This document shows positions 3 through 63,172 of a stretch of 64,000 nt of DNA, in pieces. The stretch spans positions 128,001 through 192,000 of the forward strand of contig CAWAGQ010000008.1 in NCBI GenBank assembly GCA_963781585.1. Direction: 5' to 3'. The first letter of the stretch is position 1, and each line of letters opens with the position of its first letter. The notes beneath the pieces were generated by a model. That model saw only the letters and a list, made by a program, of their open reading frames with translations, had not been told where the DNA came from and did not search any database. The position numbers and the translations under genes are program-made. Source of the DNA: an uncultured Gemmatimonadaceae bacterium. Lineage in GTDB: Bacteria > Gemmatimonadota > Gemmatimonadetes > Gemmatimonadales > Gemmatimonadaceae.

Positions 3-746
3 GACTACCAGGGCGTCGAGGAGATGTTCTCGGCCGCCAGGGACATGGCCAAGGGAGCGGCCCTGATGACCGGCGCGCAGCTCGACACCGTCATCATCCT
101 CGGCTCCGCGTGGAACGGCTGGTTCAACCGGACGATCGCCCAGACGATGCAGAAGAACATCGAGCGCGTGGGGATGCCTTCGTGGGACGCGGCCGACGAG
201 ACGATGGCGCGCGGGCTGCAACACGAGCTGGGCGTGCGCGAGTCGGGGCTGTCCACGCAGGTCAACCAGCTGCGCGACGCCACGCCCACCGCCGGCCGAG
301 GTGGCCGCGGCGGCGGTGGAGGCGGCGGCGGTTCCGACGACATCGGCGACGTGTCGTGGACCGTGCCGACGGTGACGCTGCGCTATCCGTCGAACATCCC
401 CGGCGGGCCGGGGCACAACTGGGCGAACGCGATCTCGATGGCCACTCCCATCGCCCACAAGGGGGCGGTGACGGGAGCCAAGGTCCAGGCGCTGACCATG
501 CTGGATATTCTGCTCACGCCGAAGGTCGTGGCCGACGCGTGGGACTATTTCCGCAACATCCAGACCAGGGACATCAAGTATACGCCGTTCATCGGGCCTA
601 ACGACCAGCCGGCGATCTGGCTCAACGCCGAGATCATGGCGAAGTACCGCCCGGAGATGAAGAAGTTCTACTACGACCCGGCGAAGTTCAAAACATATCT
701 GGAGCAGCTGGGGATCAAGTATCCGACGCTGAGGTCGATTCAATAG
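3..746 (+). CDS. M20-family amidohydrolase (AbgB-like), 5'-truncated by window edge
   Basis: Open frame from window start; motifs GSDDIGDVSW.VPT, PGH.W, HKG typical of AbgB-like M20 C-termini. Confidence 0.8.
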   Translation, partial: DYQGVEEMFSAARDMAKGAALMTGAQLDTVIILGSAWNGWFNRTIAQTMQKNIERVGMPSWDAADETMARGLQHELGVRESGLSTQVNQLRDATPTAGRGGRGGGGGGGGSDDIGDVSWTVPTVTLRYPSNIPGGPGHNWANAISMATPIAHKGAVTGAKVQALTMLDILLTPKVVADAWDYFRNIQTRDIKYTPFIGPNDQPAIWLNAEIMAKYRPEMKKFYYDPAKFKTYLEQLGIKYPTLRSIQ

Positions 747-748
747 AA

Positions 749-830
749 ACAGCTGTCAGTGGGCAGTTATCAGTGATCAGCGGTGAGCTCACAGCGGTCA
801 GCAGTCAGCTGTCAGCTCTCGGTCGTCAGG
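749..830. repeat. Degenerate heptamer tandem repeat (CAGCNGT/CAGTGAT-type) between convergent genes
   Basis: cagctgt cagtggg cagttat cagtgat cagcggt ... cagcggt cagcagt cagctgt cagc. Confidence 0.75.
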
Positions 831-963
831 TCTACGTCCCAGATGCCTGTCGCTCGCGGTCAGGAGTTGTTCATCCGGCTCCCATCCACGCGCCCTGATG
901 TTCCTTGCTCACTCCCGCGTCTGGCATGTCTTTGCGAAACCGCTTGCTGTCGCGAGATCGTGT

Positions 964-2142
964 CTACGGCCTGACGATTCGTCGGAGCACAAGAGTCTCT
1001 GTTCCGTCCCCATCGACCTCGTTGAGCAGCATCTGGTCGCGGCGAATGGCCAGGGGAGTCGCGGTGATCGCCATGTTGAGGCGACCGAGTAGTGCTCCCG
1101 CCGCGTTGGTGACGAGCCAGGTTGCCGAGTCGGCGCCGGCGGGCGCGTACGCGCGGATCCAGACGTTGCCGTCTGTATCGATGCGCAACTCGGCCAACAA
1201 TGGCGCTGGCAGAGATTGCCTCCTCTTCCGCATCTCCGCACCAAGCAGCGCGCGCTGCTGCGGATCGCGCATGAATTCCAGTTCCCGCGCCACTTCCGCC
1301 TCGGTGACCCGGCGCGCGGCGAGAGGCACGGTGAAGCGCCGAAGGATCTCAGCGGTTGCCGAATACGCGACGAACTGACCGGTCATGTTCTCGCCGATAA
1401 TGAGCGTGTCGTTCGCCATGGCGACGTGCGCCTGCGCTCCGAACGGCAGTCGAATCGCGCGAAAGCTCCTCCCCGCCTCGTACACGAACCACTCCGCACC
1501 AGGTACACGCACCACGGTGTCACGCGCTTCCCCAGCGGGACTCAGCCTGACGATGCTGATCGTGTCGCGCACCACGCCGCGCACCGTCCGCGGGTCGTAC
1601 GCTCCCGCTTGCACCACCACGATGCTCCCCTCGGCAGTGAAGCCGACGGGGAACGCGCCCACAGGGGCGCCAAACATTCGTGCGAAGCGCCCCACGGGGT
1701 CGAGCACCGTGAATCGACTCGCCAGCACGTCGAACACCAGGATCGAGTCATCGATTCGCCCCATCCAGCCGACGCTGCGGAACTCACCCGGTCCGGATCC
1801 TTCCCGCCCAACGACGGTGCGCAGACGCCCATCCTTGTCGAAGATCAGCACCTGCCGCCTCCCTGAGTTTCCGACGACGATTCCGCCGTCATCACCGAGC
1901 AGAGCCGAGTTCGCGTTGAGCAACTGGAGAGGGCTCACCGGATCGCGGGATCCTATCCGGACGGCGGCGCTGGTATCGAGTGTCCACGTCACGGCCGCGG
2001 GCGGTGGTGATCTGCTCGGTTCGCAGCTCGCAAGGAAGCCCATTGCCATCGCAGCGTGGATCGCCGCACCGCCGCCGCGGCGAACCCTTGCACGAAAGCG
2101 TGTGACAGCCCGGCTGGTTCCGAGAGGCGCGCTCGAGGTCAT
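964..2142 (-). CDS. 6-bladed beta-propeller protein (TolB/NHL-like), probable lipoprotein
   Basis: GR.GSGPGEF motif, FD.DG repeats, C-terminal D.DGNVW; FLASC lipobox-like segment; start uncertain (2142 or 2049). Confidence 0.7.
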   Translation of the reverse strand: MTSSAPLGTSRAVTRFRARVRRGGGAAIHAAMAMGFLASCEPSRSPPPAAVTWTLDTSAAVRIGSRDPVSPLQLLNANSALLGDDGGIVVGNSGRRQVLIFDKDGRLRTVVGREGSGPGEFRSVGWMGRIDDSILVFDVLASRFTVLDPVGRFARMFGAPVGAFPVGFTAEGSIVVVQAGAYDPRTVRGVVRDTISIVRLSPAGEARDTVVRVPGAEWFVYEAGRSFRAIRLPFGAQAHVAMANDTLIIGENMTGQFVAYSATAEILRRFTVPLAARRVTEAEVARELEFMRDPQQRALLGAEMRKRRQSLPAPLLAELRIDTDGNVWIRAYAPAGADSATWLVTNAAGALLGRLNMAITATPLAIRRDQMLLNEVDGDGTETLVLRRIVRP

Positions 2143-2426: not shown

Positions 2427-3947
2427 ATGCCTTCTTCTCTTCGCACTTCCCTCCACCAGAATCCTCTCGACATTCCGCCTGCCGAGTTCCGGCGGCTGGG
2501 ACATGCGGTCGTCGACGACCTGGCGGACTTCCTCGACGCCCTTCCGCACCGGCGCGTCACGTCCGGGGCGTCGCCCGCGACCCTCCGCACCGCGCTCGGG
2601 GGTGACGGACTTCCTGCTGAGGGCGCCGACCCGGGCGATCTGCTTCGCGAGGCCACGCGGCTGCTCGTGAAGGACTCGCTCTTCAACGGACACCCCCGGT
2701 TTCTGGGCTACATCACCTCGTCGGCATCGCCCACCGGCGCGCTCGCCGACCTGGTCGCCGCCGCGATCAATCCCAACGTGGGCGGCTTTGTCCTTTCCCC
2801 CGTTGCTACCGAGATCGAAGCCCAGGCGATACGGTGGATCGCCGAGTTGTTAGGCTGTTCGCCCTCGTGCGGCGGCCTGTTCGTGAGCGGTGGCAACATG
2901 GCGAACTTCGTCGCGTTCCTGGCCGCCAGGCGAGCGAAGGCGCCATGGGATGTCCGCGCGCTGGGGCTCCGTGGTGGCGACCGCCAGCTCGTCGCCTACG
3001 CCTCGAAGGAAACGCACACCTGGTTCCAGAAGGCGGCCGACCTCTTCGGGCTCGGACTCTCCGCCATCCGGTGGATCGAGGTGGACGCGGAGCAGCGCAT
3101 GATCGTGTCGGATCTCGAGCGGCAGATCGCGGCCGATCGTCAGGCGGGCGCGTTCCCCTTTCTGGTGGTCGGCACCGCCGGCACGGTGAGTACCGGCGCC
3201 GTCGATCCGCTGCGCGAGATCGCCGCCGTCTGCCGGACGCACGACCTCTGGTTTCACGTCGACGGCGCATACGGGGCGCCGGCGGCAGCGCTGCCCGACG
3301 CGCCTGACGATCTCAAGGCGCTCGCACTGGCGGACTCGGTGGCGGTCGATCCTCACAAGTGGCTGTACGCGCCGATCGAGGCAGGGTGCATCCTGGTCCG
3401 CGACCCGCAGCATCTCATGGATGCGTTCAGCTTTCATCCCGAGTACTACCACTTCGCCGAGATGGAGGGCGAGCAGCCGCGCAACTATTACGAGTACGGG
3501 CCACAGAATTCGCGCGGATTCCGGGCGCTCAAGGTGTGGCTGGGTCTGCGCCAGGCCGGCCGCGCCGGACACGCACAGCTGATTCGTGAAGACATCGCGC
3601 TGGCGCGTCACCTTTACGACGAAGTCCGGAAGACGCCCGAACTCGAGGTGCTGACCCACAACCTCAGCATCACGACATTCCGCTACGTCCCCCCGGATCG
3701 TCAGGCGCCCGGCGACGAATCGGCGGACTATCTCAACGACCTGAACGCGGCGCTGCTCGAGCGGCTGCAGGCCGAGGGGGAGGTGTTCCTCTCGAATGCG
3801 CTCATCGACGGGGCGTTCGTGCTGCGCGCGTGCGTGGTGAACTTCCGCACCACCCGGATCGACATCGAGGCCATCCCGGGCATCGTGGTGCGCGTGGGAC
3901 GCGAGGTACACGCGGGGATGGCTCCCTCGCGCTCCTCTTCGACCTGA
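2427..3947 (+). CDS. PLP-dependent group II (aromatic-L-amino-acid/DAB-type) decarboxylase
   Basis: WFHVDGAYG and DPHKWLY (PLP lysine) motifs, SGG.MAN, GT.STGAVDPL, SRGFRALKVW. Confidence 0.9.
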   Translation: MPSSLRTSLHQNPLDIPPAEFRRLGHAVVDDLADFLDALPHRRVTSGASPATLRTALGGDGLPAEGADPGDLLREATRLLVKDSLFNGHPRFLGYITSSASPTGALADLVAAAINPNVGGFVLSPVATEIEAQAIRWIAELLGCSPSCGGLFVSGGNMANFVAFLAARRAKAPWDVRALGLRGGDRQLVAYASKETHTWFQKAADLFGLGLSAIRWIEVDAEQRMIVSDLERQIAADRQAGAFPFLVVGTAGTVSTGAVDPLREIAAVCRTHDLWFHVDGAYGAPAAALPDAPDDLKALALADSVAVDPHKWLYAPIEAGCILVRDPQHLMDAFSFHPEYYHFAEMEGEQPRNYYEYGPQNSRGFRALKVWLGLRQAGRAGHAQLIREDIALARHLYDEVRKTPELEVLTHNLSITTFRYVPPDRQAPGDESADYLNDLNAALLERLQAEGEVFLSNALIDGAFVLRACVVNFRTTRIDIEAIPGIVVRVGREVHAGMAPSRSSST

Positions 3948-4482: not shown

Positions 4483-7142
4483 CGGACCACGAAGGGCGTG
4501 CGCTGCAACCGCCGAGCCTCGCGGTGACGCTCCTGTCGCGCCGCCTCCCCGACCTCGATCGCGAGTTCATTCTCGGCGACCTCGAGGAAGCCTTTCACAA
4601 TCGGGTGAGCGCAGTGGGTCGGCGATCGGCCCGACGCTGGTTCTGGCGCGAGGCCCTTCGGATGCTCCTTTCTCCCTGGCCATCACCTCGGGCGCCTCGC
4701 GTGCCTGACGCTCCACAGGAGACCGGTATGCGCTCGCTCCTCAGTGATCTGCGATTCGCCGTCCGCACCATCGCTCGCACGCCCGGTGTGAGCGCGCTCA
4801 TCGTACTCACGCTGGCGCTCGGCATTGGCGCGGCGAGCGGCATCTTCAGCATCGTCTATCCGGCTCTGTTCGAGCTCCCCGGCCTGCGCGACCCCTCCCG
4901 GGTGGTGCTCCTCTGGGAGCGCGAGCGCGCGGGTACCGAGAGCAACGTCGGCTACCTCACCTTCACCGACCTCCAGCGCGAGACGAAAAGCCTCGAGTCG
5001 GCCGCTGCGATGAGCTATTGGCAGCCGATCATCCGGGGAGGCAGCGAGCCCGAGCGGCTCGACGGCCAACGCGTCACCGCCCGGTTCTTCCACGTACTCG
5101 GCGTCCAGCCGTTGTTAGGCAGGGACTTCGCGCCGGAGGAGGACCGGAACGGCGCCAACCGGGTCCTCATCCTGACCTACGGCCTCTGGCAGCGCCGGTT
5201 CGGCGGCGACAGTGCCATCATCGGCCGGACGGTCCCCCTCGGCGACACGCCCTACACCGTCGTTGGCGTGCTTCCACCGGACTTCGAGAGCGTTCTCGCT
5301 CCCGGCTCGGAGATCTTCGGGCCGCTGGGATATGACGCCTCGCTCCCCTACGCCTGCCGAAGCTGCCGCCACCTCCGGGTGGTCGCCCGTGTTCGCAATG
5401 GCTTCACGATCGCCAGCGCCGAGCGCGAGCTGAGTGCGCTGATGCCCACGATCATCGCGCAGGCGCCGCAGGACTACGACGACAATGGCGTTTCGCTCGT
5501 CCCGCTGCACGACTACATGACTCGCATGGCCAGGCCGGCGCTCCTCGCCCTGGTGGGGGCCGTCGGATTCGTCCTGCTCATCGCCTGCGCAAATGCCGCA
5601 AATCTCATCCTCGGGCGCACGATTCGTCGCGAGTCGGAGTTCGCGGTGCGGACGGCGCTCGGCGCCGGCCGACGCCGCCTGGTTCGACTGATCCTGAGTG
5701 AGAGTCTGGTGCTGGCCCTGGTCGCGGGGGCGCTAGGCGCGGTTCTCGCGGTCGTGGGAGTACGCCTCTTCCTGCGATTCCAGCCCGCAGGCATACCCCG
5801 CATCGAGCACATTCGCGTCAATGGAGTCGTGCTCGCGTTCACCTTCCTGGTGGCGATGCTGACGGGGCTGGCGGCAAGTCTGCTGCCCGCGATCGCGACG
5901 GCCCGCAGCGATCTGCACGGGTTGCTGAAGGCCGGCGCGCGCGGATTGTCGCAGGGGGTGCGTCATCGTCTCCGGGCGATGCTGGTGATCACCGAAGTCG
6001 CGCTCGCCGTCACGTTGCTCGCTGGCGCGACGCTCCTGTTCGAGAGCCTCAGCCGGCTGCTCGCGGTCAATACCGGTTTCGACGTCCACAACCGCCTGAC
6101 GATGGAAGTGCAGGTTTCCGGCTCGAAGTATCGCGACAACGCGCTGGTTCAGCAGTTCTTCCACGATGCGGTGGATGCCGTCGCGGCGGTTCCCGGCGTG
6201 CTGGCGGCGGGAGCCGCGAGCGAGCTCCCGCTGGGCGGAAACATCGACATGTACGGCGTGCACAGTGATGTGAATCCGGACCCCGCTTCCGAGCGGGATC
6301 CGTCCGCCCTCCGGTACTCGATGACAGCCGATTTTCTCCAGGCGATGGGCATCTCCGTGCGCCGTGGACGCACGATCACGGCCGACGAGGTGCGTCGATC
6401 GGACCCGGTCGTGCTGATCAACCAGGTCATGGCACAGCGGCTCTACGGCGCGGCCGATCCACTCGGTCACCGCATCCATATCGGTGGTCCGGACAATCCC
6501 TGGCTGACGATCGTGGGCGTGGTGGGGAACGCGCACCATCGTGGCCTCGACTCGGGCGACGAGCTGCAGATGTATCTGCCGGTTGGCCAGCCCTACACCG
6601 ACGGCGGCATGTCCCTGGTGGCCAGGACGGCGGGCGATCCTTCGTCGTTCGCCTCAGCAATCCGGCGCGCCGTCCGGTCGGTCGATCCCAACGTGGCGAT
6701 CGAAAAGGTGGCGACGATGGAATCGCTGCTGGCGCAATCGACCTCCCAGCGACGACTCGCGCTCACCACGTTCGGGGTGTTCGCGCTGATCGCGCTGGCG
6801 CTGGCGGCGGCCGGCATTTTTGGCGTCCTCGCCACCTCGGTCGCCGAGCGGACCCGGGAGATCGGAGTTCGCACCGCGTTAGGCGCCCCGCAGTCGCGGA
6901 TCCTCGGCATGGTGGTGCGGCAGGGACTGCGGCTCACGATGGTCGGACTGCTGTTGGGCATCGGGGGTGCGCTCGCCGCCGGCCGGCTGATCGAGCGGCT
7001 GCTGTTCGGCGTGCGCCCCCACGATCCACTGGCACTCCTGCTGGTCAGCGCAGTCCTCGGCGTGATCGCGGTGGTGGCGTGTGCCATCCCGGCCTTGCGC
7101 GCCTCCCGCGTCGATCCGGTGATCGCCCTGCGGGACAGTTAG
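4479..7142 (+). CDS. ADOP-type duplicated ABC transporter permease (MacB_PCD/FtsX x2)
   Basis: GDLEE permease-prefix segment, LLIACAN.ANL, RTREIGVR.ALGA, PA.RASRVDP..ALR; follows PadR. Confidence 0.92.
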   Translation: MTDHEGRALQPPSLAVTLLSRRLPDLDREFILGDLEEAFHNRVSAVGRRSARRWFWREALRMLLSPWPSPRAPRVPDAPQETGMRSLLSDLRFAVRTIARTPGVSALIVLTLALGIGAASGIFSIVYPALFELPGLRDPSRVVLLWERERAGTESNVGYLTFTDLQRETKSLESAAAMSYWQPIIRGGSEPERLDGQRVTARFFHVLGVQPLLGRDFAPEEDRNGANRVLILTYGLWQRRFGGDSAIIGRTVPLGDTPYTVVGVLPPDFESVLAPGSEIFGPLGYDASLPYACRSCRHLRVVARVRNGFTIASAERELSALMPTIIAQAPQDYDDNGVSLVPLHDYMTRMARPALLALVGAVGFVLLIACANAANLILGRTIRRESEFAVRTALGAGRRRLVRLILSESLVLALVAGALGAVLAVVGVRLFLRFQPAGIPRIEHIRVNGVVLAFTFLVAMLTGLAASLLPAIATARSDLHGLLKAGARGLSQGVRHRLRAMLVITEVALAVTLLAGATLLFESLSRLLAVNTGFDVHNRLTMEVQVSGSKYRDNALVQQFFHDAVDAVAAVPGVLAAGAASELPLGGNIDMYGVHSDVNPDPASERDPSALRYSMTADFLQAMGISVRRGRTITADEVRRSDPVVLINQVMAQRLYGAADPLGHRIHIGGPDNPWLTIVGVVGNAHHRGLDSGDELQMYLPVGQPYTDGGMSLVARTAGDPSSFASAIRRAVRSVDPNVAIEKVATMESLLAQSTSQRRLALTTFGVFALIALALAAAGIFGVLATSVAERTREIGVRTALGAPQSRILGMVVRQGLRLTMVGLLLGIGGALAAGRLIERLLFGVRPHDPLALLLVSAVLGVIAVVACAIPALRASRVDPVIALRDS

Positions 7143-7320: not shown

Positions 7321-9192
7321 ATGCGTCGACATCCCTGGACCGCCCTGGCGGGGCGCTGTGCGTTCGTCGCTGCCTCGGTACATCTGTTCGCCAGTCGCCC
7401 GCTCCCGGCGCAGGTCGTCACCGGGACGGTCACCGATGCCCTGTCGGGCGCCCCGGTTGGTGGCGCCGTGGTGACGCTCACCGGGCGCGCGGGGAACGCC
7501 GGCCTGCGACGCACCATCAGCGACCGGGACGGAACGTTCGCCCTCGGCGCTCCCGCCGCCGGCTCGTACGCGCTCGACATACGCGCCATCGGTTTCACAC
7601 CGTGGATCGACAGCACCATCACGTTAGGCGCCGGTGAATCACGCGTCGAACCGGTCTCCCTCAGGCCGTTCACCGTCCGGTTGGCGACCGTCCGTGTGCA
7701 GGGGCGCAGCGCCTGTCGCCGGTCCGGCGATCTCGATGTGGTCACCACCGAGGTGTGGGACAACGTGTGGGCGGCACTGGCATCCACGGAAATCGCGCAC
7801 GCCCAACAGGTCCAGGCCGATGTCTTCATGTACACCCGGGAGTACGACGCCGAGTCGGGCGTGGTGCTCCATGAGGACCACAACATTCTGCAGGTGCGGG
7901 ATGAGCGTCCGTTCCGCACCGCGCCGCCGGCCGATCTTGCCCGTTACGGCTACTGGCGCCAGACCCTCGGCGGGCAGATCAACTACTACGGGCCCGACGC
8001 GCAGGTGCTGATGTCGCCGGAGTTTCTCGCCAGCCACTGCTTCTCGCTCGTCCGCGACGACAGCGCCGCAGCCCCGCGAATCGGACTCACCTTCCGGCCC
8101 ACCCGCGCCAACACCAACGACGTGGAAGGGGTGCTGTGGATCGATGCGTTCAGCGGCGAACTGCGCGACCTCGAGTATGCCTACACCGGCCTTCAGCCGC
8201 TGCGCGGGCGCCGCGCCGAAGGCCGCATCTCGTTCTCGCGCCTGCCCAACGGCGTCTGGGTGGACGATCGCTGGCTGATTCGCCACCCGCTGCAGCAGGA
8301 TGGATCCAGGCCGCCTCGTGACGCGCGCTCGCTGGATATTCGCGAGGGCGGCGGCTTCGTGCTGACCAGCCTGTCGAGGCAGGACCATTTCGTCACCGCG
8401 GTGGGTCACATCCGGGATGGCGTGAACCAGCCGGCTCGCGGCGCGACCGTGGAGGTCATCGGCACGGACAAGCGCGTGCTGGTGGATGATGAAGGGGCGT
8501 TCCGCATCGACACGATTCTGGCTGGCACCTACGAGATACGCGTGATGCGTGCCGGCTCGGCGGAGGCCGGCGGTTTCGTATTGCGGGGCACCCTGACCTT
8601 CGAGCCCGGTGGCGCGACGCGGGTGGACGTGAGCATTCCGGACGTCGGCCACATGGCGGCGGACCTGTGTGAGGGAAAGGCACGCGGCGATGGCGTTCCC
8701 CTGTACGGAGTGCTGCGCGACATCCACTCCGGCCGGCCGATCGCCAACTACCGCATGGAGGTCGGGTGGTCCACGCTCCTCGATTCGTCGGCCGGCACGC
8801 CGGTACGTCGCCGGGCCGGCGGAACCACCGTGACGTCGGATTGGCGCGGCGCTTTCCTCGTGTGCAACGTCACCCCGCGAAGTGACGTGCGCTTCCGCGC
8901 CGCTGGCGCGAAGGAGGAGGACTGGAGCCAGTTCCTCCCGGTGGGCTCGCAGCTGTTCGTCATCGAGATCGCGGTGGACACCGCCGCGAAGGGCTCGTCG
9001 GGCATGGGGACTTCAGCCGATCCAGACGCTCGCCGAGATCCCACCGAACAGCAGGCCGTGGAAATGCAGCGGCCCCGGCGCGCGCCGGGGCCGCTGCCTG
9101 ACGAGCCGTCCCCTCCGGTCAGGGGGAACCGGGTGGCCGTCCCGGGCGACCTCCCTGCCCCGGCCCGGCGCCGAAGCCGCGACCATTCTTGA
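7321..9192 (+). CDS. Secreted carboxypeptidase-regulatory-like domain protein
   Basis: Signal peptide ending AQ, VTGTVTDA..GAPV.GA.V domain, YGPDA..L.S..F...HCF motif shared with 25965-28421. Confidence 0.75.
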   Translation: MRRHPWTALAGRCAFVAASVHLFASRPLPAQVVTGTVTDALSGAPVGGAVVTLTGRAGNAGLRRTISDRDGTFALGAPAAGSYALDIRAIGFTPWIDSTITLGAGESRVEPVSLRPFTVRLATVRVQGRSACRRSGDLDVVTTEVWDNVWAALASTEIAHAQQVQADVFMYTREYDAESGVVLHEDHNILQVRDERPFRTAPPADLARYGYWRQTLGGQINYYGPDAQVLMSPEFLASHCFSLVRDDSAAAPRIGLTFRPTRANTNDVEGVLWIDAFSGELRDLEYAYTGLQPLRGRRAEGRISFSRLPNGVWVDDRWLIRHPLQQDGSRPPRDARSLDIREGGGFVLTSLSRQDHFVTAVGHIRDGVNQPARGATVEVIGTDKRVLVDDEGAFRIDTILAGTYEIRVMRAGSAEAGGFVLRGTLTFEPGGATRVDVSIPDVGHMAADLCEGKARGDGVPLYGVLRDIHSGRPIANYRMEVGWSTLLDSSAGTPVRRRAGGTTVTSDWRGAFLVCNVTPRSDVRFRAAGAKEEDWSQFLPVGSQLFVIEIAVDTAAKGSSGMGTSADPDARRDPTEQQAVEMQRPRRAPGPLPDEPSPPVRGNRVAVPGDLPAPARRRSRDHS

Positions 9193-33245: not shown

Positions 33246-33541
33246 GAGTCCTCCTAACGAGTAGTGGGGTGCGACGTAGCGGAACGGGCTGTCCCATTCC
33301 GGTGGTGTACCCTCCCGGCACGGACGCGGGTCCGAGGCCGGTGAGGGCAAAGAGAGGATGTATGCGCGGTTGAAAAGTCATGGGCGAACGGTTCGACCCA
33401 TTCACGATAATTCCAATCAGTCGCATGGAGAGCGCCGGGGGGGGAGGGCGCGCACCATCACAACCATCGGACGGACTCGGCTGGGGCGAAACGACGCACC
33501 CCTCCTTCGGCACCGAAACCTGCTGCCGAAGACTGTGCAAT

Positions 33542-48118: not shown

Positions 48119-48370
48119 CGTTAGGCCGGTGACCCCGCGGACCTGTCGCGGTCAGCAGGGGCGGAGGCATCCCGCTTCTGCCGTATCACCGGCGGCCCCG
48201 ACGATTGAGCGCCTGACTATTGACGAGTCCGCCCGGGCGCACGCATCATCTCGTGCCGAGCCGTTTGATCCGCGCTCCGGATCACTCCGCCGCTGCATGA
48301 TCGCCGGCCCGGTGGAAGGCCGGTGCAGCCTGTCGGCGCCGTCTTCACTCACACACCGATCCTCGAAACG

Positions 48371-53346: not shown

Positions 53347-54278
53347 CAGATATATCGCGATCGGTGGACTTCGTATTCCGCGAGCTGCAGCGCCGCTTTG
53401 CCGCCGCCGGCCAGGTACCCCGTGGCCTCGCCAGCGGCCGTCACCATCGCGCTGAGAAGAATGAGCGCCAGTGTTCCCGCGGGCGCTCGCGATTTCTGAT
53501 ACGCCCACTGGACCGAACGCAGGGGCTTGCCAGCGATCAGGACGGCGGCGATCGGCGTGGCGAGGAAATACAGCAGGCGGCGCGAAGCGGACCATCCTCG
53601 CGAGCGGGCCGTTCCCCAGAATCTCCCCGTCAGAAAACGCTCCGGCAGCCAGCCGCGGAACGTTGCCACATTGAGGTGCGCCAGGCGTGCCGCGGGCTCG
53701 ATCAGAAAGCGCCCGCCGCGGTCACGAAGCAGCGCGTCCAACCCACTGCCATAGTCGAGCATTTCTGCCAGGCGCTCCCCGAGATCCACCAGTGCCTGAC
53801 GACGGAAGCATCCGTTGTAGGTGGCGATGGTCTCGATCTCCGTGCGGACTGCCGGATCTATCCAGTGCCGGTACGTCAACATCAGCAGCGCCCAGCTCAG
53901 CGCCTTTGTCGGATTGCCGTTTTCGATCACCGGCATGACCACGGCGTAGTCGCCGCCGGCGTGCGCGGCGAGCAGCGCCTGGAGACAGTCGGGCGCCGGA
54001 TAGGAGTGGGTCTCGCCGATGAAGACCAGTGGACACGAGGCCGCTCGGACACCCGCGGCGCGTGCTGGAGAGAGCGGCATGATCGCTTCAGCCTCGACCA
54101 CCCGGACTGCGCCGATTCCCGCGGTCTCCCGCGGGTCGAGCTCCAACTCCGCTCCTGACCGGCAGACGATGACGAGCTCGATGGCTGGAGAGATGGACTG
54201 CGCCCGCACCGCACGCACCACGTCGCGGATCGTGGCGAAGGTATCGGTCACTACCACGAAGGAGAGCTCGAGGCTCAC
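53346..54278 (-). CDS. GT2-like glycosyltransferase
   Basis: LSFVVVT N-terminal strand, RAAGV.AA, N..FRR..L; GTGA coupling. Confidence 0.75.
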   Translation of the reverse strand: MSLELSFVVVTDTFATIRDVVRAVRAQSISPAIELVIVCRSGAELELDPRETAGIGAVRVVEAEAIMPLSPARAAGVRAASCPLVFIGETHSYPAPDCLQALLAAHAGGDYAVVMPVIENGNPTKALSWALLMLTYRHWIDPAVRTEIETIATYNGCFRRQALVDLGERLAEMLDYGSGLDALLRDRGGRFLIEPAARLAHLNVATFRGWLPERFLTGRFWGTARSRGWSASRRLLYFLATPIAAVLIAGKPLRSVQWAYQKSRAPAGTLALILLSAMVTAAGEATGYLAGGGKAALQLAEYEVHRSRYI

Positions 54279-55974: not shown

Positions 55975-55989
55975 GGGCAGGCCCGCGCG

Positions 55990-56589
55990 TCAGGCGGCGC
56001 GCCGCGACAGTGCGCGTTCCACAAAACGCCGCACCAGCCTGGCCGGAATGGCCACACCCAGGCCATTGACGACCATGCTGTTGACGCCCACCAGGCGCCC
56101 TTCGGCGTCCACCAGCGGGCCACCGGAGTTGCCCGGCGCCAGACGCACGTCCGCCACCACCCAGCGCGGTTCGTCGGTGCGTGGGTCGCGCGCGACCGCG
56201 TGCACCACGCCCATCGCCAGGGCGTCAGGGATCCCGAGCGGATGGCCATGAGCGAACACCAACTCGCCCACCCGTAACGAGCCGGTGTCCCGGACCTCGA
56301 GCAGAGGCCCGGCCACCGATGGCGCGGCGAGAAGCGCGAGATCATGATCCGGATGGTACGCGATGGCGGTGGCGTCGCGCCACGTGGTACCGACGCGTAC
56401 CGCGAGACGAGTCCGGCGCGGCACACAGTGCGCATTCGTCACGACGAGTCCGGCGCCACCCCAGATGATCCCGGTGCCGCTGCCGGTATCGCCGCTGCGA
56501 ACCTCCACCACCGCCTGACGCAGGAGCTCGCTCAGCCCAACGAGGCCGGAGGCCACCGCGCGCGCCGGACCTGACGATGTCGCGATCAT
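55990..56589 (-). CDS. Trypsin-like (S1C) serine protease without PDZ
   Basis: VTNAHC, DLALL, PGNSGGPL. Confidence 0.9.
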   Translation of the reverse strand: MIATSSGPARAVASGLVGLSELLRQAVVEVRSGDTGSGTGIIWGGAGLVVTNAHCVPRRTRLAVRVGTTWRDATAIAYHPDHDLALLAAPSVAGPLLEVRDTGSLRVGELVFAHGHPLGIPDALAMGVVHAVARDPRTDEPRWVVADVRLAPGNSGGPLVDAEGRLVGVNSMVVNGLGVAIPARLVRRFVERALSRRAA

Positions 56590-57536
56590 GATCGCCCCCC
56601 GCGGTCGATCGGCACGATCGAGACCTCCTTCACGGCGCCGCCGCGCAGCACCTTGAGCGCGACTGTCGAACCATCGTTCACGCCGGCGAGGACGTCGAGC
56701 AGGTCGGTGGGATGGCGCAGGACGTGCCCATTCGCCTCGACCAGGGCATCTCCGACGAACAGCCCTCCGCGCTCGGCTGGAGACCCGTCGCCAACTGACA
56801 GGATCAGCAGAGCGGTGTCGTTCGCGAGCTGATGCTGCCTGACGAGGGCGGAGGGAAGCATCACGGGCTGGACCGCGACCCCGATGAACGGGCGCGGTAC
56901 GTGACCCCGCGTGATGAGTTCGTCGATCACGCGATCGACGGCGAACGCCGGCAACGCCATGGGCATTCCGCGTCCCAGGGCGGAATTGTCGATGCCGAGC
57001 AGCGCGCCGCTGGCGTCCAGCAGCGGACCGCCGGAGAACCCGTCGTAGATCGCGAGGTCGAGTCGCAGCACCCTGTCAATCCGTGCGCCTCCACCACCAC
57101 CCTGCCAGGTACGCCATCCCTCGCGAATGGCGCTGATGACACCGAAGCTCGCGGTGACGTCGCGGCCGGGCCGGCCCGCGGCGATCACCAGCGCGCCTAC
57201 TCGCGTGGTTTCGGAGCCGCCCGGGGACGCCAGCAATGGCTTTGCACTTCCCGCCGCAATGCGGAGCGCGATCAGGTCCGTTGCAGCGTCCCGGCCGATG
57301 ACGGTCGACGTGGTGGACGCGCCGTCGGGAAGGGTGATGCCGATGTCGTCATCCTTGCGTACGGTATGGCTCGCGCTCACGATCACGCCGTCCCGCCAGA
57401 CGATTCCGCTTGATGGAATGCGCCGGCGTGCGTGAATGGCAACGATGGAGCCGGACGCAGCCTGGACCGCGTCAGCAAGCTCTGTTGAAAGCTGACTGAG
57501 CGTGCTCCCGGTCCTTCCCGTCTTCGATGGTGTCAT
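56586..57536 (-). CDS. S1C serine protease with C-terminal PDZ
   Basis: SASH, D..TDL, GFSGGPL, SPA..GGL..GD; AGGAG RBS. Confidence 0.9.
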   Translation of the reverse strand: MTPSKTGRTGSTLSQLSTELADAVQAASGSIVAIHARRRIPSSGIVWRDGVIVSASHTVRKDDDIGITLPDGASTTSTVIGRDAATDLIALRIAAGSAKPLLASPGGSETTRVGALVIAAGRPGRDVTASFGVISAIREGWRTWQGGGGGARIDRVLRLDLAIYDGFSGGPLLDASGALLGIDNSALGRGMPMALPAFAVDRVIDELITRGHVPRPFIGVAVQPVMLPSALVRQHQLANDTALLILSVGDGSPAERGGLFVGDALVEANGHVLRHPTDLLDVLAGVNDGSTVALKVLRGGAVKEVSIVPIDRGGRS

Positions 57537-58445: not shown

Positions 58446-58449
58446 GAGC

Positions 58450-60153
58450 CTACTGCGTGACTCGCATGAACGGCAGGTCGCGCATCCGTGATGCGCCGAC
58501 GTGCAGCGTTGTCACGCGTCCCGAGGCGTCGCGGGTGAACCATATCACCCGCCCGCCACCCTGCCGCGGACCGAAGTGATCGCGATACAGGGGCCGGAGC
58601 GGCAGCTTCGTATCGGGACGCTGTTCGATCTCGAGTCCCCCATCCACGACCGCGAGTGTGAACGTCGCATCGGCCTCGTCGCTATGCCAGACGCCGGCGA
58701 ATTCGGCGAGCTGTGACGCCGTCGGCATCCACGGCGTTTCCGCCACGAGGTGGTCCTCGCCGTCCGGACGATAGCGTGTCGCGTGGGCCGGCTTGCCGCC
58801 GGCGGCGGGCTCGAATCGCCACCGGATCGGTCCTTGTGCGGCGAGAAACTCGCCGTCGCGGAGAGGATGCAGTACGGCACCGGCTCGGAGGGATCCGTTC
58901 TCCACCGTGATCTGTATGGGCATGTGGGTGGCAACGTCCCGCCAGAGGCCCGCCCACTTCTGGAGTTCCTGCGCCGGCAGTGACACGGTGTCGGGGGCGG
59001 CCGGGGCCGGGAGCGGACCGGCGATCTCGTCGACCAGCCGCATGGCGAGTTGGCCCGGATTCGGCGAGGGGGCGTTGCACATCACTGCGATCGACAGGGC
59101 GGGCCCCGGGAATCGGGTGAGAAACGTCGTGTATCCGGCGGTCGAGCCGCTATGTGCCACCTGACGCAGACCTTTGTAGGTCGTGACCTCCAGTCCCAGT
59201 GCGTAGGCGATCTCGCGTCCGTCGTTGAGCCGGCCCTGCCGTTCCAGCGAATCCACCAGCGCGCCGACGTTCTTCCCGCCGAGGGTGCGCGTGTCGAGCA
59301 TGGCGTTCCACTTCAACCAGTCGCCCACCGTGGTGAGCAGACCACCGTTGCCGTAGACGTTCATGAACGGCATGTCCAGTTTCCAGGCCCCCTGACCGGC
59401 ACGCGCGTACGCCTGGGCGCGTCCGGGGACCAGCGTGGTGTAGTCGGTGCGCCATTGCGAGTGCGTCATGCCTAACGGCTTGAAGAACCGCTCGGCGGTG
59501 AATGCCGGCAGGCTCTGCTTCGAGACGCGTTCGACGATCGTCGACAGCAGCGTATAGCCGCTGTTGGAGTACGAGTACTCGGCGCCCGGGGTGAAATCGA
59601 GGCCGTGCTGGTGCACGATCACATCAAGGGCCAGCGCCTGCGACACGACGCGATCGCCGCGTCCGTAGCCGGTGAGCCCAAGCACCGAGCCCCAATCGCG
59701 GATTCCGCTGGTGTGGTTGAGGAGATTCCGGATGGTGAGCGGGGCGCCATAGTCGGGAAGCTCGGGGATGTACTTCTTCACCGGATCGTCGAGCCGCAAC
59801 TTCCCTTCGAGGGCCAGCAGCACGATCGAGGCGGCGGTGAATTGCTTGGCCACCGATCCCGACTCGAAGATCGTCTGTGGCGTATTGGCGATGCCGAATT
59901 CCAGATCGGCCATTCCGAATGCCCGTTCATAGACCGGCCGATTGTCGTGCGCGATACCCACCGCGCACCCGGGGGCGGGGGCGGTCCCCGACGCCGACGT
60001 GACCGCCGAGAGCACTTGATCGGCCCGCGCGGCGATCGTGGCGGAGTCGGGCATCTGCGCCCCGGTCCGGAGCGGAACGGCGCACGCCAACGTGAGGCCC
60101 GCGAACGCGAGGCCGAGGGATGCGAACACCCGCTCTGTTCTGGCAATCTGCAT
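58450..60153 (-). CDS. Serine hydrolase, beta-lactamase/AmpC-like family
   Basis: GSVAKQF (SxxK), YSN (YxN), HSG, LL.HTSG. Confidence 0.92.
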   Translation of the reverse strand: MQIARTERVFASLGLAFAGLTLACAVPLRTGAQMPDSATIAARADQVLSAVTSASGTAPAPGCAVGIAHDNRPVYERAFGMADLEFGIANTPQTIFESGSVAKQFTAASIVLLALEGKLRLDDPVKKYIPELPDYGAPLTIRNLLNHTSGIRDWGSVLGLTGYGRGDRVVSQALALDVIVHQHGLDFTPGAEYSYSNSGYTLLSTIVERVSKQSLPAFTAERFFKPLGMTHSQWRTDYTTLVPGRAQAYARAGQGAWKLDMPFMNVYGNGGLLTTVGDWLKWNAMLDTRTLGGKNVGALVDSLERQGRLNDGREIAYALGLEVTTYKGLRQVAHSGSTAGYTTFLTRFPGPALSIAVMCNAPSPNPGQLAMRLVDEIAGPLPAPAAPDTVSLPAQELQKWAGLWRDVATHMPIQITVENGSLRAGAVLHPLRDGEFLAAQGPIRWRFEPAAGGKPAHATRYRPDGEDHLVAETPWMPTASQLAEFAGVWHSDEADATFTLAVVDGGLEIEQRPDTKLPLRPLYRDHFGPRQGGGRVIWFTRDASGRVTTLHVGASRMRDLPFMRVTQ

Positions 60154-60263
60154 TTTCGACCACGCCTGTGGTGATGGGTTTTCGACTGTTCGTGCCTAGT
60201 GTGGACCGGCGTACCGGCCGCGTCAAGCGCCGGTGCTCGACAGGAACATCAACCTGCGCGTTC

Positions 60264-60490
60264 GTTAGGCGTCCAGCACCTCGCGGACGTCGGCGTACGT
60301 CTGATCGAGGTCCGCCGTGGCAGTCTCGATGGTGAGACGGCCTCCCGCGGCCATCGCATCACGGGCGTTGACCACCAGGTTCAGCAGCACCTGCTCGAGT
60401 TGTCCCGGATCGGCCTTTATCCGGGAAGCCCGGCATCCAGCGTCGTGGTCAGGATGAGCCATCCGGGCATCGATTCCACACCGATGTTCG
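60264..60490 (-). pseudogene. Hybrid histidine kinase remnant (HATPase N-box fragment joined to a receiver C-terminus)
   Basis: [31 protein letters not shown] followed by VREVLDA*; upstream LTTTLD segment is out of frame. Confidence 0.8.
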
Positions 60491-61577: not shown

Positions 61578-61788
61578 CGGTGTTCGACTCGCGCAGGTCG
61601 AGAGGCCTGCGTGGTACGTGAAAGACGCGCGCCGTCGGGGAGCAATCTCCGGCGGCGCCTGTCATCCTGCTGGAGCGCGACGCATTCCGGAACCGTGCGA
61701 TGCCGACCCCGCGGGACGCTACGGTGCAGGGTGACGAGCTGACGGGCCGCGGCTTGACGCGATGCCCGGGGTGAGCCATAGGTAGCAG

Positions 61789-62355
61789 ATGGTTCCTCGA
61801 CTCAATCTCTTCACCGTCATCGCGGCCGGTCTCTGCGCTGCCTGTGCTTCGGCGTCACGCACCGCGCCGCGCGTTCCAACCACCGCGTACGACGCCTCCG
61901 TCACCTCCGATCTGCAGCGCCTGCGCGCGGCCACTGACAGGTTTCACTCGCTCGACTCCGCCGTCGCCGCCGGGTATGTGCGCGATGTACCGGCGTGCCT
62001 CGTGCACGAGCGGCACGGTGCGATGGGCTACCACCACACCAATGCCGCGTACATGGACGCCAGGGTCGACGTGGAGCGTCCGGAGATTCTGCTGTACGAA
62101 CGGATGCCCGACGGCGCCTATCGTCTGAACGGCGTGGAGTTCATCGTCCCCTATCGGGCCTGGTCACGCGACTCCATAGCTCCGGTCATCATGGGACAGC
62201 GCCTCAGGTACGAGGACAACCTCAAACTCTGGTATCTCCATGTGTGGGCGTGGCGGACCAATCCCGACGGGCTGTTCGCCGACTTCCACCCGGACGTGCA
62301 GTGCCCGGACAGCGCCCGCAAGGTGTTCATGCCCTACGTGCAGCCGCCGCGGTGA
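61789..62355 (+). CDS. Hypothetical lipoprotein with GAMG.H / LH.W / NP.G.F motifs
   Basis: LCAAC lipobox; PEILLYE, GVE.IVP. Confidence 0.75.
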   Translation: MVPRLNLFTVIAAGLCAACASASRTAPRVPTTAYDASVTSDLQRLRAATDRFHSLDSAVAAGYVRDVPACLVHERHGAMGYHHTNAAYMDARVDVERPEILLYERMPDGAYRLNGVEFIVPYRAWSRDSIAPVIMGQRLRYEDNLKLWYLHVWAWRTNPDGLFADFHPDVQCPDSARKVFMPYVQPPR

Positions 62356-62506
62356 CCTGCCGATCGCCCGGGGTACAATCGCCGAGGTCCGCAGTCGGTG
62401 GGTGACGGTCGGTGGTGTCAGGTGCATCTCGGGCGATCGCCGCAGCAGCGCCGAGCCTAACGAGGCGATCCGGACGCGGCGGTAGCGGATCGCTGCTCCC
62501 TGATCG

Positions 62507-63172
62507 TCAGAGCAGATTCTCGCGCACCGCCCTCGCCACCGCCCCGCTGCGATTGTTCACGTGCAGCTTCGCGTAGATGTTGCGCACGTGACCGTCGATG
62601 GTGTGCGGGCTCAGGCGCAGCTCCGCCGCGATGTCGTTCTTCGTCAGCCCATCCACCAGCCGCTGGAGGATCTGCCGCTCGCGCTCGGAGAGCCCGTAGT
62701 CAGCCTGCGGCGTCACCATCCGCGCGAACATCTCGAGCACCCGGCGCGCGATCTGCGCGTCCATCGCCGCACCGCCATCAAGCACTTTCTCGATCCCGCC
62801 CATGATCTCGTCCCGGGGCGACGACTTGAGCAGGTACCCGGACGCACCCGCGCACACGGCCTCGAAGATCTTCTCGTTGCTCTGGTGCACGGTGAGCATG
62901 ACCACCGGGATCGAAGGATTGGTCTTCCGGATGGATCGCACGCAGTCGGTCCCGCTCATGCCCGGCAGGGCCAGATCCATCAGGATCAGGCGGGGCAGTT
63001 CCTTCCCGTCGCCTAACGCATCGAGCGCGGACTCGGCATCGGCGAACAGCTCGGTGCAGGTGAACCGGTCACTCTGGTCGAGCAGCTCGCCCAGGGTGCG
63101 CCGATACATCGCACTGTCCTCCACCACCCAGATGGGCGCCCGATGATTCGCAGTACGACCGACCCCGCTCAT
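62507..63172 (-). CDS. NarL/FixJ-family response regulator
   Basis: VED, LMD..LPG, GASGYLLK, LuxR HTH. Confidence 0.93.
   Translation of the reverse strand: MSGVGRTANHRAPIWVVEDSAMYRRTLGELLDQSDRFTCTELFADAESALDALGDGKELPRLILMDLALPGMSGTDCVRSIRKTNPSIPVVMLTVHQSNEKIFEAVCAGASGYLLKSSPRDEIMGGIEKVLDGGAAMDAQIARRVLEMFARMVTPQADYGLSERERQILQRLVDGLTKNDIAAELRLSPHTIDGHVRNIYAKLHVNNRSGAVARAVRENLL

Follow-up and report, generated by a model that had tools for sequence, protein, structure and literature searches.

Coding content of the window and an iterated word

The window analyzed here is a 64-kb stretch of a contig from an uncultured Gemmatimonadaceae bacterium (CAWAGQ010000008.1, positions 128,001 to 192,000). 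A simple codon-score caller delineated 40 genes, to which one was added by hand; with these 41 genes about 80% of the window is coding, and since their starts are approximate, the copies of the word scored as intergenic are slightly over-counted. Pfam matches were obtained for 36 of the 41 proteins, among them PadR regulators with MacB/FtsX-type permeases, CarboxypepD_reg TonB-type outer-membrane proteins, sortilin/BNR proteins, TPR-repeat Ser/Thr kinases, and amidohydrolases. Dispersed over these genes and the spaces between them, at a G+C content of 65-69% throughout, is a short non-palindromic word, CGTTAGG, usually found as CGTTAGGC (the T variant), together with a companion, CGTCAGGC (the C variant). 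CGTYAGGC denotes the combined word.

A preliminary description of the window had listed 32 copies of CGTTAGG, and our count returned the same 32, with every coordinate and strand in exact agreement (15 on the plus strand and 17 on the minus strand, in line with the lack of strand bias already claimed). Six further GTTAGG cores, at 2849, 5114, 7138, 24733, 25866, and 47228, were likewise recovered, for a total of 38. Dinucleotide-preserving shuffling predicts 2.63 copies of CGTTAGG (standard deviation, 1.56; maximum, 6), and none of 100 shuffles reached 32. Within called coding sequences (CDS), the 28 copies observed compare with 2.19 when synonymous codons are shuffled gene by gene and with 1.22 when codons are permuted; 0 of 1,000 shuffles reached 28 under either scheme. 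The ratio of observed to expected copies thus stays far from 1 under codon- and dinucleotide-aware models, and the earlier estimate of about seven chance copies proved too high. The codon-shuffle null is itself conservative because the TTA and CCT codons placed by the word remain in the shuffles. Base 8 is C in 26 of the 32 copies, and CGTTAGGC occurs 26 times against a first-order Markov expectation of 0.97. The reported scarcity of TTAG/CTAA in other contexts was confirmed, with 38 of the 48 such tetramers in the window falling within GTTAGG. Nor are TTA and CCT-AAC equally common outside the word: in the called genes, it accounts for 17 of 24 TTA codons and 10 of 67 CCT codons.

The C variant came from a table of all 6- to 10-mers in the window. 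It occurs 29 times against 6.0 expected (first-order Markov), and among the one-base variants of both words, T or C at position 4 and, less so, T at base 8 are enriched, the rest lying at expectation. CGTYAGGC as a whole reaches 55 copies against 6.71 expected (0 of 100 shuffles attain 55), i.e., one per 1.16 kb, so that the spacing of about 2 kb first proposed shortens to about 1.2 kb once the C variant is counted. CGTCAGGC is found in all five stop-free phases and often lies within ATCGTCAGGC (10 in CDS versus 0.7 expected); rare codons occur in this form too, ATC-GTC-AGG and xCG-TCA-GGC among them. In the phase that places position 4 at the wobble base, C is used nine times and T once. Cells evidently treat T and C as equivalent at this position, following the G+C preference at third codon positions (G+C3). 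A view of the C variant as a decayed T variant was rejected because it occupies the CGT-CAG phase, where T would make a stop codon.

Flank preferences in the window (T or G at position -1, G or A at position +9) extend the consensus to K-CGTYAGGC-R. Outside positions -1 and +9, information amounts to at most 0.23 bit, both in the window and in the Gemmatirosa sample described below. Flanks that carry no information beyond these positions argue against a mobile repeat. An RNA element was also considered and rejected, with 0 Rfam matches in the window.

Reading frames, rare codons, and proteome footprint

Coding copies of the T variant are concentrated in two frames, xCG-TTA-GGn (17 copies) and, from the other strand, CCT-AAC-G (10 copies), which together account for 27 of 28; a single copy reads C-CTA-ACG, and four are intergenic. 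The word is hence read as Leu(TTA)-Gly or Pro(CCT)-Asn in 17 plus 10 of the 32 copies, as had been proposed. This preference arises because two in-frame stops lie inside the word: the T form has a stop in one phase per strand, which leaves two phases on each. In both favored phases the wobble bases are positions 2, 5, and 8. The codons on which the word draws (TTA, CCT, AGG, and TCA) are rare in genes whose G+C3 ranges from 0.85 to 0.97.

The gene nhaA carries two copies. At the site encoding T351-L352-G353, Leu is present in 26 and Gly in 35 of 35 aligned sequences, and at the site encoding A120-L121-G122, Ala and Gly are invariant while position 121 is Leu in 14 of 35 sequences, Ile in 13, and Val in 7. 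Both copies lie on an Ala/Thr-Leu-Gly common to most homologues and were therefore written by synonymous recoding.

The word also raises the frequency of Pro-Asn tripeptides and so leaves a footprint in the proteome. PN[VADEG] occurs 1.65 times per 1,000 amino acids in the window and 1.19 times in Gemmatirosa, compared with 0.47 in eight high-GC loci of other phyla and 0.08 in two Gemmatimonadales loci (L006 and L012; a small sample of 12,752 amino acids). The reversed tripeptide stands at 0.54 per 1,000 in Gemmatirosa, and [SPTA]LG is only 1.3 times as frequent as its reverse. None of the called stop codons in the window is supplied by the word, in contrast to Gemmatirosa; the 41 called genes end in TGA (24), TAG (16), and TAA (1). 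TAG is unusually frequent among these stops, given a G+C content of 67%.

The same word in another dialect on Gemmatirosa plasmids

The second genome of the family was sampled as seven 50-kb stretches of the two megaplasmids of Gemmatirosa kalamazoonensis KBS708, six of them on plasmid 1 and the seventh on plasmid 2. Together they cover 350 kb out of some 2.15 Mb of plasmid DNA, and about 3 kb of this sample is duplicated, so that about two sites are counted twice. The duplicated segments (L081 1-3059 and L083 46941-50000) are 99.97% identical at a 53-kb offset, matching the known 53-kb tandem repeat of plasmid 1.

CGTTAGGC occurs 214 times in this sample against 5.1 expected (first-order Markov), with 20 to 38 copies per stretch, and 162 times in called CDS against 5.8 under synonymous shuffling (maximum, 12 in 200 shuffles). 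The base after GTTAGG is always C. CGTCAGGC is not enriched here (44 versus 40), and two minor forms are, namely TGTTAGGC (28 versus 1.2) and AGTTAGGC (10 versus 1.2). Near-misses with the TTAG core are almost missing (CGTTAGGA/G/T, 0 versus 6.9; CGTTANGC, 1 versus 21), although first-order Markov expectations for words that contain TAG or TAA are unreliable in coding DNA. The two genomes thus write a common core in different dialects, CGTYAGGC (K-CGTYAGGC-R) in the window and YGTTAGGC (YGTTAGGC-R) in Gemmatirosa. Density is about one per 1.2-1.4 kb in both, though their G+C contents differ.

Frames in Gemmatirosa follow the same pattern. Among the 214 copies, 93 read xCG-TTA-GGC, 57 read G-CCT-AAC-G, 12 lie in the other two phases, 30 are intergenic, and 22 supply the gene's own stop codon (10 of 42 TAG stops and 12 of 25 TAA stops). 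YG-TTA-GGC holds 113 of the 121 TTA codons of the sample, and the word encodes 26% of [SPTA]-Leu-Gly tripeptides (93/358) and 47% of Pro-Asn-[VADEG] tripeptides (57/121). Its survival under codon shuffling and its recurrence in a second genome of the family bear out the preliminary description of a genome-wide, strand-neutral word imposed on coding sequence; it is a DNA-level signal and not a by-product of codons or peptides.

The single-molecule real-time (SMRT) methylome of Gemmatirosa comprises only RGATCY, ATGCAC, and CCAGN7TCA, three N6-methyladenine (m6A) motifs (PMC3974934). None of them resembles the word, which speaks against m6A at its sites; 5-methylcytosine (m5C) and phosphorothioate lie outside the scope of that study.

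Word-free gaps of at least 3.5 kb in Gemmatirosa hold genes with a G+C3 of mostly 0.93-0.98, one low-GC gap standing at 0.88-0.90. The three longest (L082 22514-31287, L084 4452-11434, and L087 40168-44890) each contain a SusC/SusD-like pair, the SusC-like member being a TonB receptor. The six SusC/SusD-like genes encode 16 word-capable tripeptides and carry 1 copy against about 6 expected, although their G+C3 (0.97-0.98) is normal; high expression with avoidance of rare codons, or a later arrival, may account for this.

Orientation, spacing, and mutual exclusion of variants

CGTYAGGC is oriented 25:30 in the window, and CGTTAGGC is oriented 112:102 across the Gemmatirosa sample (P = 0.54), whose seven stretches do not differ significantly (heterogeneity, P = 0.12). 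The contrast drawn earlier with the strand-skewed signals Chi and KOPS (FtsK-orienting polar sequences) therefore holds, and the lack of skew disfavors polar signals of either type. No correlation of word strand with local gene orientation was found (8 samples; Spearman, -0.29; P = 0.49), and a strand bias derived from gene orientation was rejected on this basis.

Copies are spread more regularly than chance would predict. Counts in 5-kb bins have a variance-to-mean ratio of 0.63 in Gemmatirosa (P = 0.008) and of 0.58 in the window (P = 0.11, 16 bins). For the 252 HGTTAGGC sites of Gemmatirosa (H = A, C, or T), both ends of the distance distribution are depleted, with 31 distances below 400 bp against 61 expected and 25 above 2.5 kb against 40. 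In the window, 1 of 54 distances falls below 200 bp against 8.5 expected (P = 0.001). When realized sites in Gemmatirosa are compared with random draws from word-capable tripeptides, distances below 200 bp make up 4.2% versus 9.9% (P = 0.0025).

This distance-keeping extends across variants. No copy of CGTCAGGC lies within 300 bp of CGTTAGGC in the window (0/26 versus 6.4 under circular shifts; 0 of 5,000 shifts as low), which is the lowest value among 138 control 8-mers of similar abundance, none of which gives zero. The minor forms of Gemmatirosa (T/A-GTTAGGC) keep away from its major form in the same manner (4/38 within 300 bp versus 12.9; P = 0.0007), whereas forms not enriched there do not (CGTCAGGC, 16/44 versus 14.5; CGTGAGGC, 16/41 versus 13.6). 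Since exclusion is restricted to enriched variants, the set that keeps its distance is the set enriched in that genome; exclusion below about 400 bp tracks function and not sequence likeness. Close inverted pairs show no excess, with 6 of 235 neighbor pairs in Gemmatirosa both inverted and less than 300 bp apart.

Distribution in other genomes

Comparison loci came from a profile search of genome contigs with an NhaA alignment; the 80 loci listed span many phyla. CGTTAGGC is not enriched among them (11 copies in all; none in 70 of the 80), and CGTTAGG reaches a maximum of 4 per locus. Four of the listed loci belong to Gemmatimonadales (L003, L006, L008, and L012), with NhaA proteins 52-60% identical to that of the window. 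The word is not enriched in these four, nor do they hold another iterated word, their top k-mers looking codon driven. The closest NhaA homologue of the window is 91% identical and the next at most 70%, and the homologue names point to Gemmatimonadaceae. The word is lineage specific, with two positive genomes in this small sample.

Individual copies and other features of the sequences

Positions of the T and C variants are collected in Table 1. The T-variant copy at 33253 continues into AGGAGG-N4-ATG on the minus strand and could have arisen by chance at a ribosome-binding site.

Table 1. Copies of the T variant, CGTTAGG (eighth base in parentheses), and of the C variant in the window
Variant	Position	Strand	Location	Reading or remark
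CGTTAGG(C)	597..603	-	CDS 3-746(+), opposite strand	CCT-AAC-G (Pro-Asn)
CGTTAGG(C)	6877..6883	+	CDS 4728-7142(+)	GCG-TTA-GGC (Ala-Leu-Gly)
CGTTAGG(C)	7622..7628	+	CDS 7321-9192(+)	ACG-TTA-GGC
CGTTAGG(T)	10686..10692	-	CDS 9119-12985(-)	TCG-TTA-GGT
CGTTAGG(C)	11344..11350	+	CDS 9119-12985(-), opposite strand	CCT-AAC-G
CGTTAGG(C)	12448..12454	+	CDS 9119-12985(-), opposite strand	CCT-AAC-G
CGTTAGG(C)	12679..12685	+	CDS 9119-12985(-), opposite strand	CCT-AAC-G
CGTTAGG(T)	15879..15885	-	CDS 15479-17569(-)	TCG-TTA-GGT
CGTTAGG(C)	16587..16593	-	CDS 15479-17569(-)	ACG-TTA-GGC
CGTTAGG(C)	21914..21920	+	CDS 20611-22764(+)	GCG-TTA-GGC
CGTTAGG(C)	22226..22232	+	CDS 20611-22764(+)	GCG-TTA-GGC
CGTTAGG(C)	23269..23275	-	CDS 23086-24675(+), opposite strand	CCT-AAC-G
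CGTTAGG(C)	24071..24077	+	CDS 23086-24675(+)	TCG-TTA-GGC
CGTTAGG(C)	27494..27500	+	CDS 25965-28397(-), opposite strand	CCT-AAC-G
CGTTAGG(C)	28180..28186	-	CDS 25965-28397(-)	ACG-TTA-GGC
CGTTAGG(C)	29914..29920	-	CDS 29310-30326(-)	CCG-TTA-GGC
CGTTAGG(A)	33253..33259	-	intergenic as called	8th base off-consensus
CGTTAGG(C)	33737..33743	+	CDS 33542-36730(-), opposite strand	C-CTA-ACG (Leu-Thr); sole copy in other phase
CGTTAGG(C)	37202..37208	-	nhaA	ACG-TTA-GGC (T351-L352-G353)
CGTTAGG(C)	37895..37901	-	nhaA	GCG-TTA-GGC (A120-L121-G122)
CGTTAGG(C)	40655..40661	-	CDS 39545-40963(+), opposite strand	CCT-AAC-G
CGTTAGG(C)	41576..41582	+	CDS 41041-42402(+)	GCG-TTA-GGC
CGTTAGG(C)	42957..42963	-	CDS 42453-43772(+), opposite strand	CCT-AAC-G
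CGTTAGG(G)	44862..44868	-	CDS 44271-47402(+), opposite strand	CCT-AAC-G
CGTTAGG(C)	48119..48125	+	intergenic	
CGTTAGG(T)	48399..48405	+	CDS 48323-50137(+)	GCG-TTA-GGT
CGTTAGG(A)	49247..49253	-	CDS 48323-50137(+), opposite strand	CCT-AAC-G
CGTTAGG(C)	49638..49644	+	CDS 48323-50137(+)	TCG-TTA-GGC
CGTTAGG(C)	59471..59477	-	CDS 58450-60129(-)	CCG-TTA-GGC
CGTTAGG(C)	60263..60269	+	intergenic	
CGTTAGG(C)	62456..62462	-	intergenic	
CGTTAGG(C)	63012..63018	-	CDS 62507-63127(-)	GCG-TTA-GGC
CGTCAGGC	969..976	-	CDS 964-1938(-)	ATC-GTC-AGG-C
CGTCAGGC	1545..1552	-	CDS 964-1938(-)	ATC-GTC-AGG-C
CGTCAGGC	3138..3145	+	CDS 2427-3947(+)	CGT-CAG-GC
CGTCAGGC	3302..3309	-	CDS 2427-3947(+), opposite strand	G-CCT-GAC-G
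CGTCAGGC	3699..3706	+	CDS 2427-3947(+)	CGT-CAG-GC
CGTCAGGC	4703..4710	-	intergenic as called	
CGTCAGGC	6094..6101	-	CDS 4728-7142(+), opposite strand	GC-CTG-ACG
CGTCAGGC	9096..9103	-	CDS 7321-9192(+), opposite strand	G-CCT-GAC-G
CGTCAGGC	10331..10338	-	CDS 9119-12985(-)	TCG-TCA-GGC
CGTCAGGC	13652..13659	-	CDS 13414-14628(+), opposite strand	GC-CTG-ACG
CGTCAGGC	17090..17097	-	CDS 15479-17569(-)	TCG-TCA-GGC
CGTCAGGC	17384..17391	+	CDS 15479-17569(-), opposite strand	GC-CTG-ACG
CGTCAGGC	18519..18526	+	CDS 18011-18907(+)	TCG-TCA-GGC
CGTCAGGC	30438..30445	+	3' edge of CDS 30440-32485(-)	counted intergenic
CGTCAGGC	31583..31590	-	CDS 30440-32485(-)	GCG-TCA-GGC
CGTCAGGC	32239..32246	-	CDS 30440-32485(-)	ATC-GTC-AGG-C
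CGTCAGGC	32760..32767	+	CDS 32703-33158(-), opposite strand	GC-CTG-ACG
CGTCAGGC	34915..34922	+	CDS 33542-36730(-), opposite strand	G-CCT-GAC-G
CGTCAGGC	36530..36537	-	CDS 33542-36730(-)	GCG-TCA-GGC
CGTCAGGC	38462..38469	-	CDS 38416-38892(-)	CGT-CAG-GC
CGTCAGGC	38841..38848	+	CDS 38416-38892(-), opposite strand	G-CCT-GAC-G
CGTCAGGC	51274..51281	+	CDS 51167-52363(-), opposite strand	G-CCT-GAC-G
CGTCAGGC	51976..51983	+	CDS 51167-52363(-), opposite strand	G-CCT-GAC-G
CGTCAGGC	53794..53801	-	CDS 53346-54278(-)	CGT-CAG-GC
CGTCAGGC	55988..55995	+	between called CDS 55570-55974 and 55990-56556	
CGTCAGGC	56513..56520	-	CDS 55990-56556(-)	CGT-CAG-GC
CGTCAGGC	56837..56844	-	CDS 56586-57386(-)	CTC-GTC-AGG-C
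CGTCAGGC	63437..63444	-	CDS 63216-63998(-)	ATC-GTC-AGG-C
CGTCAGGC	63826..63833	-	CDS 63216-63998(-)	CGT-CAG-GC

The longest stretch of the window free of the T variant (49645-59470, 9.8 kb) still has six CGTCAGGC copies; it covers a glycosyltransferase/oxidoreductase cluster whose coding scores are low, and by a rough estimate the gap is not significant as the maximum over 31 gaps.

Intergenic tandem arrays of period 7 occur at 750-817, 3979-4048, 4118-4137, 7227-7250, 14633-14735, 36831-36909, 38979-38997, and 55218-55349. Their units include AGGCCAA/CCAAAGG (11 and 18.9 copies), CTGGCCT, and CAGCTGT, and the arrays at about 4126, 7236, 36860, and 55228 sit just upstream of a gene, with CTTTGGC on the coding strand of that gene. 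We take these arrays to resemble the heptameric short tandemly repeated repetitive (STRR) sequences of cyanobacteria. The heptamers topping the k-mer table (AAAGGCCAA and similar) belong to the arrays and were rejected as dispersed words.

Other genes deserve brief mention. At 4156-7142, a duplicated MacB/FtsX-type permease comes after a regulator of the PadR family, and a second, single-unit permease lies at 13414-14628; permease matches fall in 23 places on the Gemmatirosa plasmids (11 and 12 per plasmid), which makes a large paralogous family. In tblastn comparisons with the 350-kb sample, the 41 window proteins gave only paralogue-level matches (28-45% identity). Among the Gemmatimonadota records of PLSDB, just two match the ADOP permease, both from Gemmatirosa. 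Small toxin-antitoxin-type genes are represented by a PIN-domain gene in the window (28928-29242, minus strand) and by a BrnA-antitoxin-like gene of Gemmatirosa (L083 18022-18477, plus strand). The latter stands at the edge of a word-free 3.6-kb stretch of low G+C content (0.64), the larger open reading frames of which had no Pfam match. No insertion sequence-like repeats were found in the 350-kb sample.

Discussion

Enrichment, DNA-level nature, orientation neutrality, spacing, dialects, and proteome footprint together call for a reader of double-stranded DNA that accepts either orientation, recognizes a genus-specific set of variants, and confers a benefit saturating at one copy per several hundred base pairs, with a coding cost attached to each copy. 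We infer that this reader is a protein and that the process it serves is DNA uptake or recombination. Our preferred reading, which we hold tentatively, is that the word serves self-DNA recognition in the manner of the uptake signal sequences (USS) of Pasteurellaceae and the DNA uptake sequences (DUS) of Neisseriaceae. A lineage-specific double-stranded word would then mark the cell's own DNA about once per 1.2 kb, and a DNA receptor of the transformation machinery would bind it irrespective of orientation, such that conspecific fragments bearing the word would be preferentially taken up and recombined. Uptake bias, acting as molecular drive along with weak selection, would write the word wherever coding tolerates it. 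One copy per fragment would be enough, and every copy would cost rare codons. An additional copy only a few hundred base pairs away would therefore bring no gain and fail to be fixed, which would give the observed spacing. On an even more cautious note, Gemmatimonadaceae could own an uptake or self-recognition system, the first outside Pasteurellaceae and Neisseriaceae, that arose independently in a phylum for which transformation is not known. Compared with USS/DUS, its limit of one copy per segment, with copies at least about 400 bp apart, would be the stricter.

USS and DUS are also short and non-palindromic, occur about once per kilobase in equal orientations and at more even than random spacing, have frames shaped by the encoded peptides with tripeptides raised about two-fold, and form dialects in related lineages while being absent from other relatives. 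The published accounts describe these words as asymmetric, equal in orientation, more evenly spread than random, biased in frame by codon cost, and associated with roughly doubled tripeptides (Findlay and Redfield 2009, PMC2817400), and report the existence of uptake-sequence dialects (Frye et al. 2013, PMC3630211).

Several points weigh against this reading. Our literature search found no member of Gemmatimonadota known to be naturally competent, a text search of PMC6299819 gave no mention of competence, and a receptor is likewise not known in the phylum. In coding DNA, USS/DUS occur less often than expected, and many are arranged as tight inverted pairs that serve as terminators (PMC2817400); in Haemophilus influenzae, 23% of USS have another USS within 100 bp (PMC7811141). 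Of the word, by contrast, 28 of 32 copies fall in CDS in a window that is about 80% coding, close pairs are avoided, and inverted pairs are as rare as noted above. Findlay and Redfield judged the drive behind USS to be only about as strong as codon selection (PMC2817400), whereas the word overrides a very strong codon bias and uses the rarest codons. The core spans only 7-8 bp, compared with 9-12 bp in USS/DUS. Enrichment of 8-fold to 42-fold is below that of USS/DUS. The tripeptide-draw test of spacing was not significant in the window (22 sites). Lastly, a structural binding site predicts identical statistics. Among the functions offered in the preliminary description, methylation or repair has lost ground in view of the SMRT motifs and of the interference between neighboring copies, and uptake and a site for a chromosome-organizing protein are not separable by our data.

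That structural alternative is the main rival. The word would be a binding or nucleation site for an abundant chromosome-structuring protein, kept at regular intervals by selection in the service of nucleoid organization, as proposed for the highly iterated palindrome HIP1 (GCGATCGC) of cyanobacteria; we consider it doubtful, yet well worth weighing. It would accommodate the neutral orientation, a density that is even across coding and non-coding DNA, and a set-point of 1.2-1.4 kb in two genomes of differing G+C content. If such a protein covered or spread over a few hundred base pairs, functional variants would be expected to exclude one another at short range, and the lack of both terminator-like pairs and CDS avoidance, unlike in USS/DUS, fits as well. 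HIP1, which is 15- to 300-fold over-represented, has been argued from its conservation and periodicity to serve chromosome structure (Xu, Lawrence and Durand 2018, PMC5861425). However, no candidate protein is known, and one would hardly expect so essential an architecture to be lacking in all four of the other Gemmatimonadales loci or to shift its accepted variants between genera. The six SusC/SusD-like genes, moreover, are nearly free of the word. The known nucleoid proteins of bacteria that occupy thousands of sites have low specificity, whereas the word tolerates almost no variation. HIP1 resembles the word as a hyper-abundant 8-mer that lies in and between genes, tens-fold over-represented, with a function unresolved after decades. 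It differs in being a palindrome that holds the targets of two orphan methyltransferases (PMC4390886), while the word is asymmetric and matches no reported m6A motif of Gemmatirosa. Selection has been favored over repair bias as an explanation for HIP1 (PMC5861425), and HIP1 was reported in a 2024 preprint to make transformation of Synechococcus more efficient; by analogy, uptake and structural readings may not be mutually exclusive.

The remaining explanations fare worse. A functionless by-product of sequence-specific repair or biased gene conversion, turning near-matches into the word in the way of very-short-patch (VSP) repair, is improbable in our judgment. Such mechanisms have long been discussed for HIP1 (PMC4390886, PMC5861425), and the near-loss of TTAG-core near-misses in Gemmatirosa looks as if they had been swept into the word, albeit against Markov expectations that are untrustworthy for such words in coding DNA. 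A site-autonomous bias predicts independence of neighbors, though; instead, sites interfere below 400 bp, an effect confined in each genome to its enriched variants, for which reason we rank this account low. VSP repair, moreover, enriches one word at the cost of one transition neighbor, whereas CGTCAGGC is co-enriched in the window and unaffected in Gemmatirosa, and the word, by introducing A/T pairs and the rarest codons, runs counter to the prevailing G+C3. A Chi-type recombination signal, by which a RecBCD/AddAB-like enzyme would spare and repair self DNA, is distinctly improbable. Chi, KOPS, and polar architecture-imparting words are short, asymmetric, over-represented, and lineage specific, like the word, which in addition occurs about once per 2.5-3 kb per orientation, within the range of Chi. 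These signals are read by DNA-tracking enzymes and strongly co-oriented with replication; the word is unskewed in all counts given above, the ori and ter of the replicons being unmapped. Replication-linked skew is reportedly defining for Chi as used in its prediction by Halpern et al. in 2007. Chi words are built from common codons, unlike this one, and a minimum spacing would not be expected of them. We deem it very unlikely that the word is a target of DNA modification or restriction-modification (methylation or phosphorothioation). Non-palindromic 6- to 8-mers with one degenerate base, which the word resembles, are typical of Type IIG, Type III, and bacteriophage exclusion (BREX)-like enzymes, and the published SMRT analysis would have missed m5C as well as changes to the backbone; but the three m6A motifs are unlike the word, restriction sites are normally avoided and not enriched 8-fold to 42-fold, and modification alone leaves the spacing unexplained. 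The view that codon usage, common peptides, or a dispersed repeat element produces the signal artefactually has next to no chance of being correct: the concentration of coding T copies in two frames, which might suggest it, follows from the in-frame stops, the codons involved are rare, and codon-aware shuffles, uninformative flanks, and enrichment in Gemmatirosa refute it. Repetitive extragenic palindromic (REP) sequences, bacterial interspersed mosaic elements (BIMEs), and miniature inverted-repeat transposable elements (MITEs) share with the word only their many dispersed copies, being longer, palindromic, and intergenic with conserved flanks; here, 8-10 bases are conserved and 76-88% of copies lie within genes.

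A hyper-abundant genome-wide word is in itself a known kind of signal. As far as can be told, this word, its occurrence in this phylum, the dialect-specific exclusion, and the strict minimum spacing are new: the preliminary description knew of no account for the lineage, and the literature that we searched, which covers few subscription journals and no supplements, likewise yielded none for Gemmatimonadota or Gemmatirosa, while a text search of a survey of abundant bacterial octamers (PMC2843746) gave no mention of the word. Genome-wide iterated words are rare, and USS, DUS, Chi, KOPS, and HIP1 have each exposed a major DNA transaction or stay a long-standing puzzle. The force behind this one is strong, as judged from the TTA codons and TAA stops that it has claimed in Gemmatirosa (113/121 and 12/25) and from the more than doubled frequency of Pro-Asn-X tripeptides. 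Mutual exclusion provides an experiment-free functional read-out of the variants that a genome accepts and is applicable to HIP1 or USS. As a compositional marker, the word can also help to bin these genomes and to recognize foreign DNA in them.

To conclude, a phylum that is abundant in soil and poorly studied hosts an iterated word common to an uncultured lineage and to a cultured type strain with a finished genome (KBS708), which makes its function testable at the bench. Constructs may need to carry the word for these bacteria to become genetically tractable. If the word is a structural site, it would offer a sharply defined handle on nucleoid organization. If it is an uptake sequence, self-preferring natural transformation would extend beyond the two proteobacterial families in which it is known.

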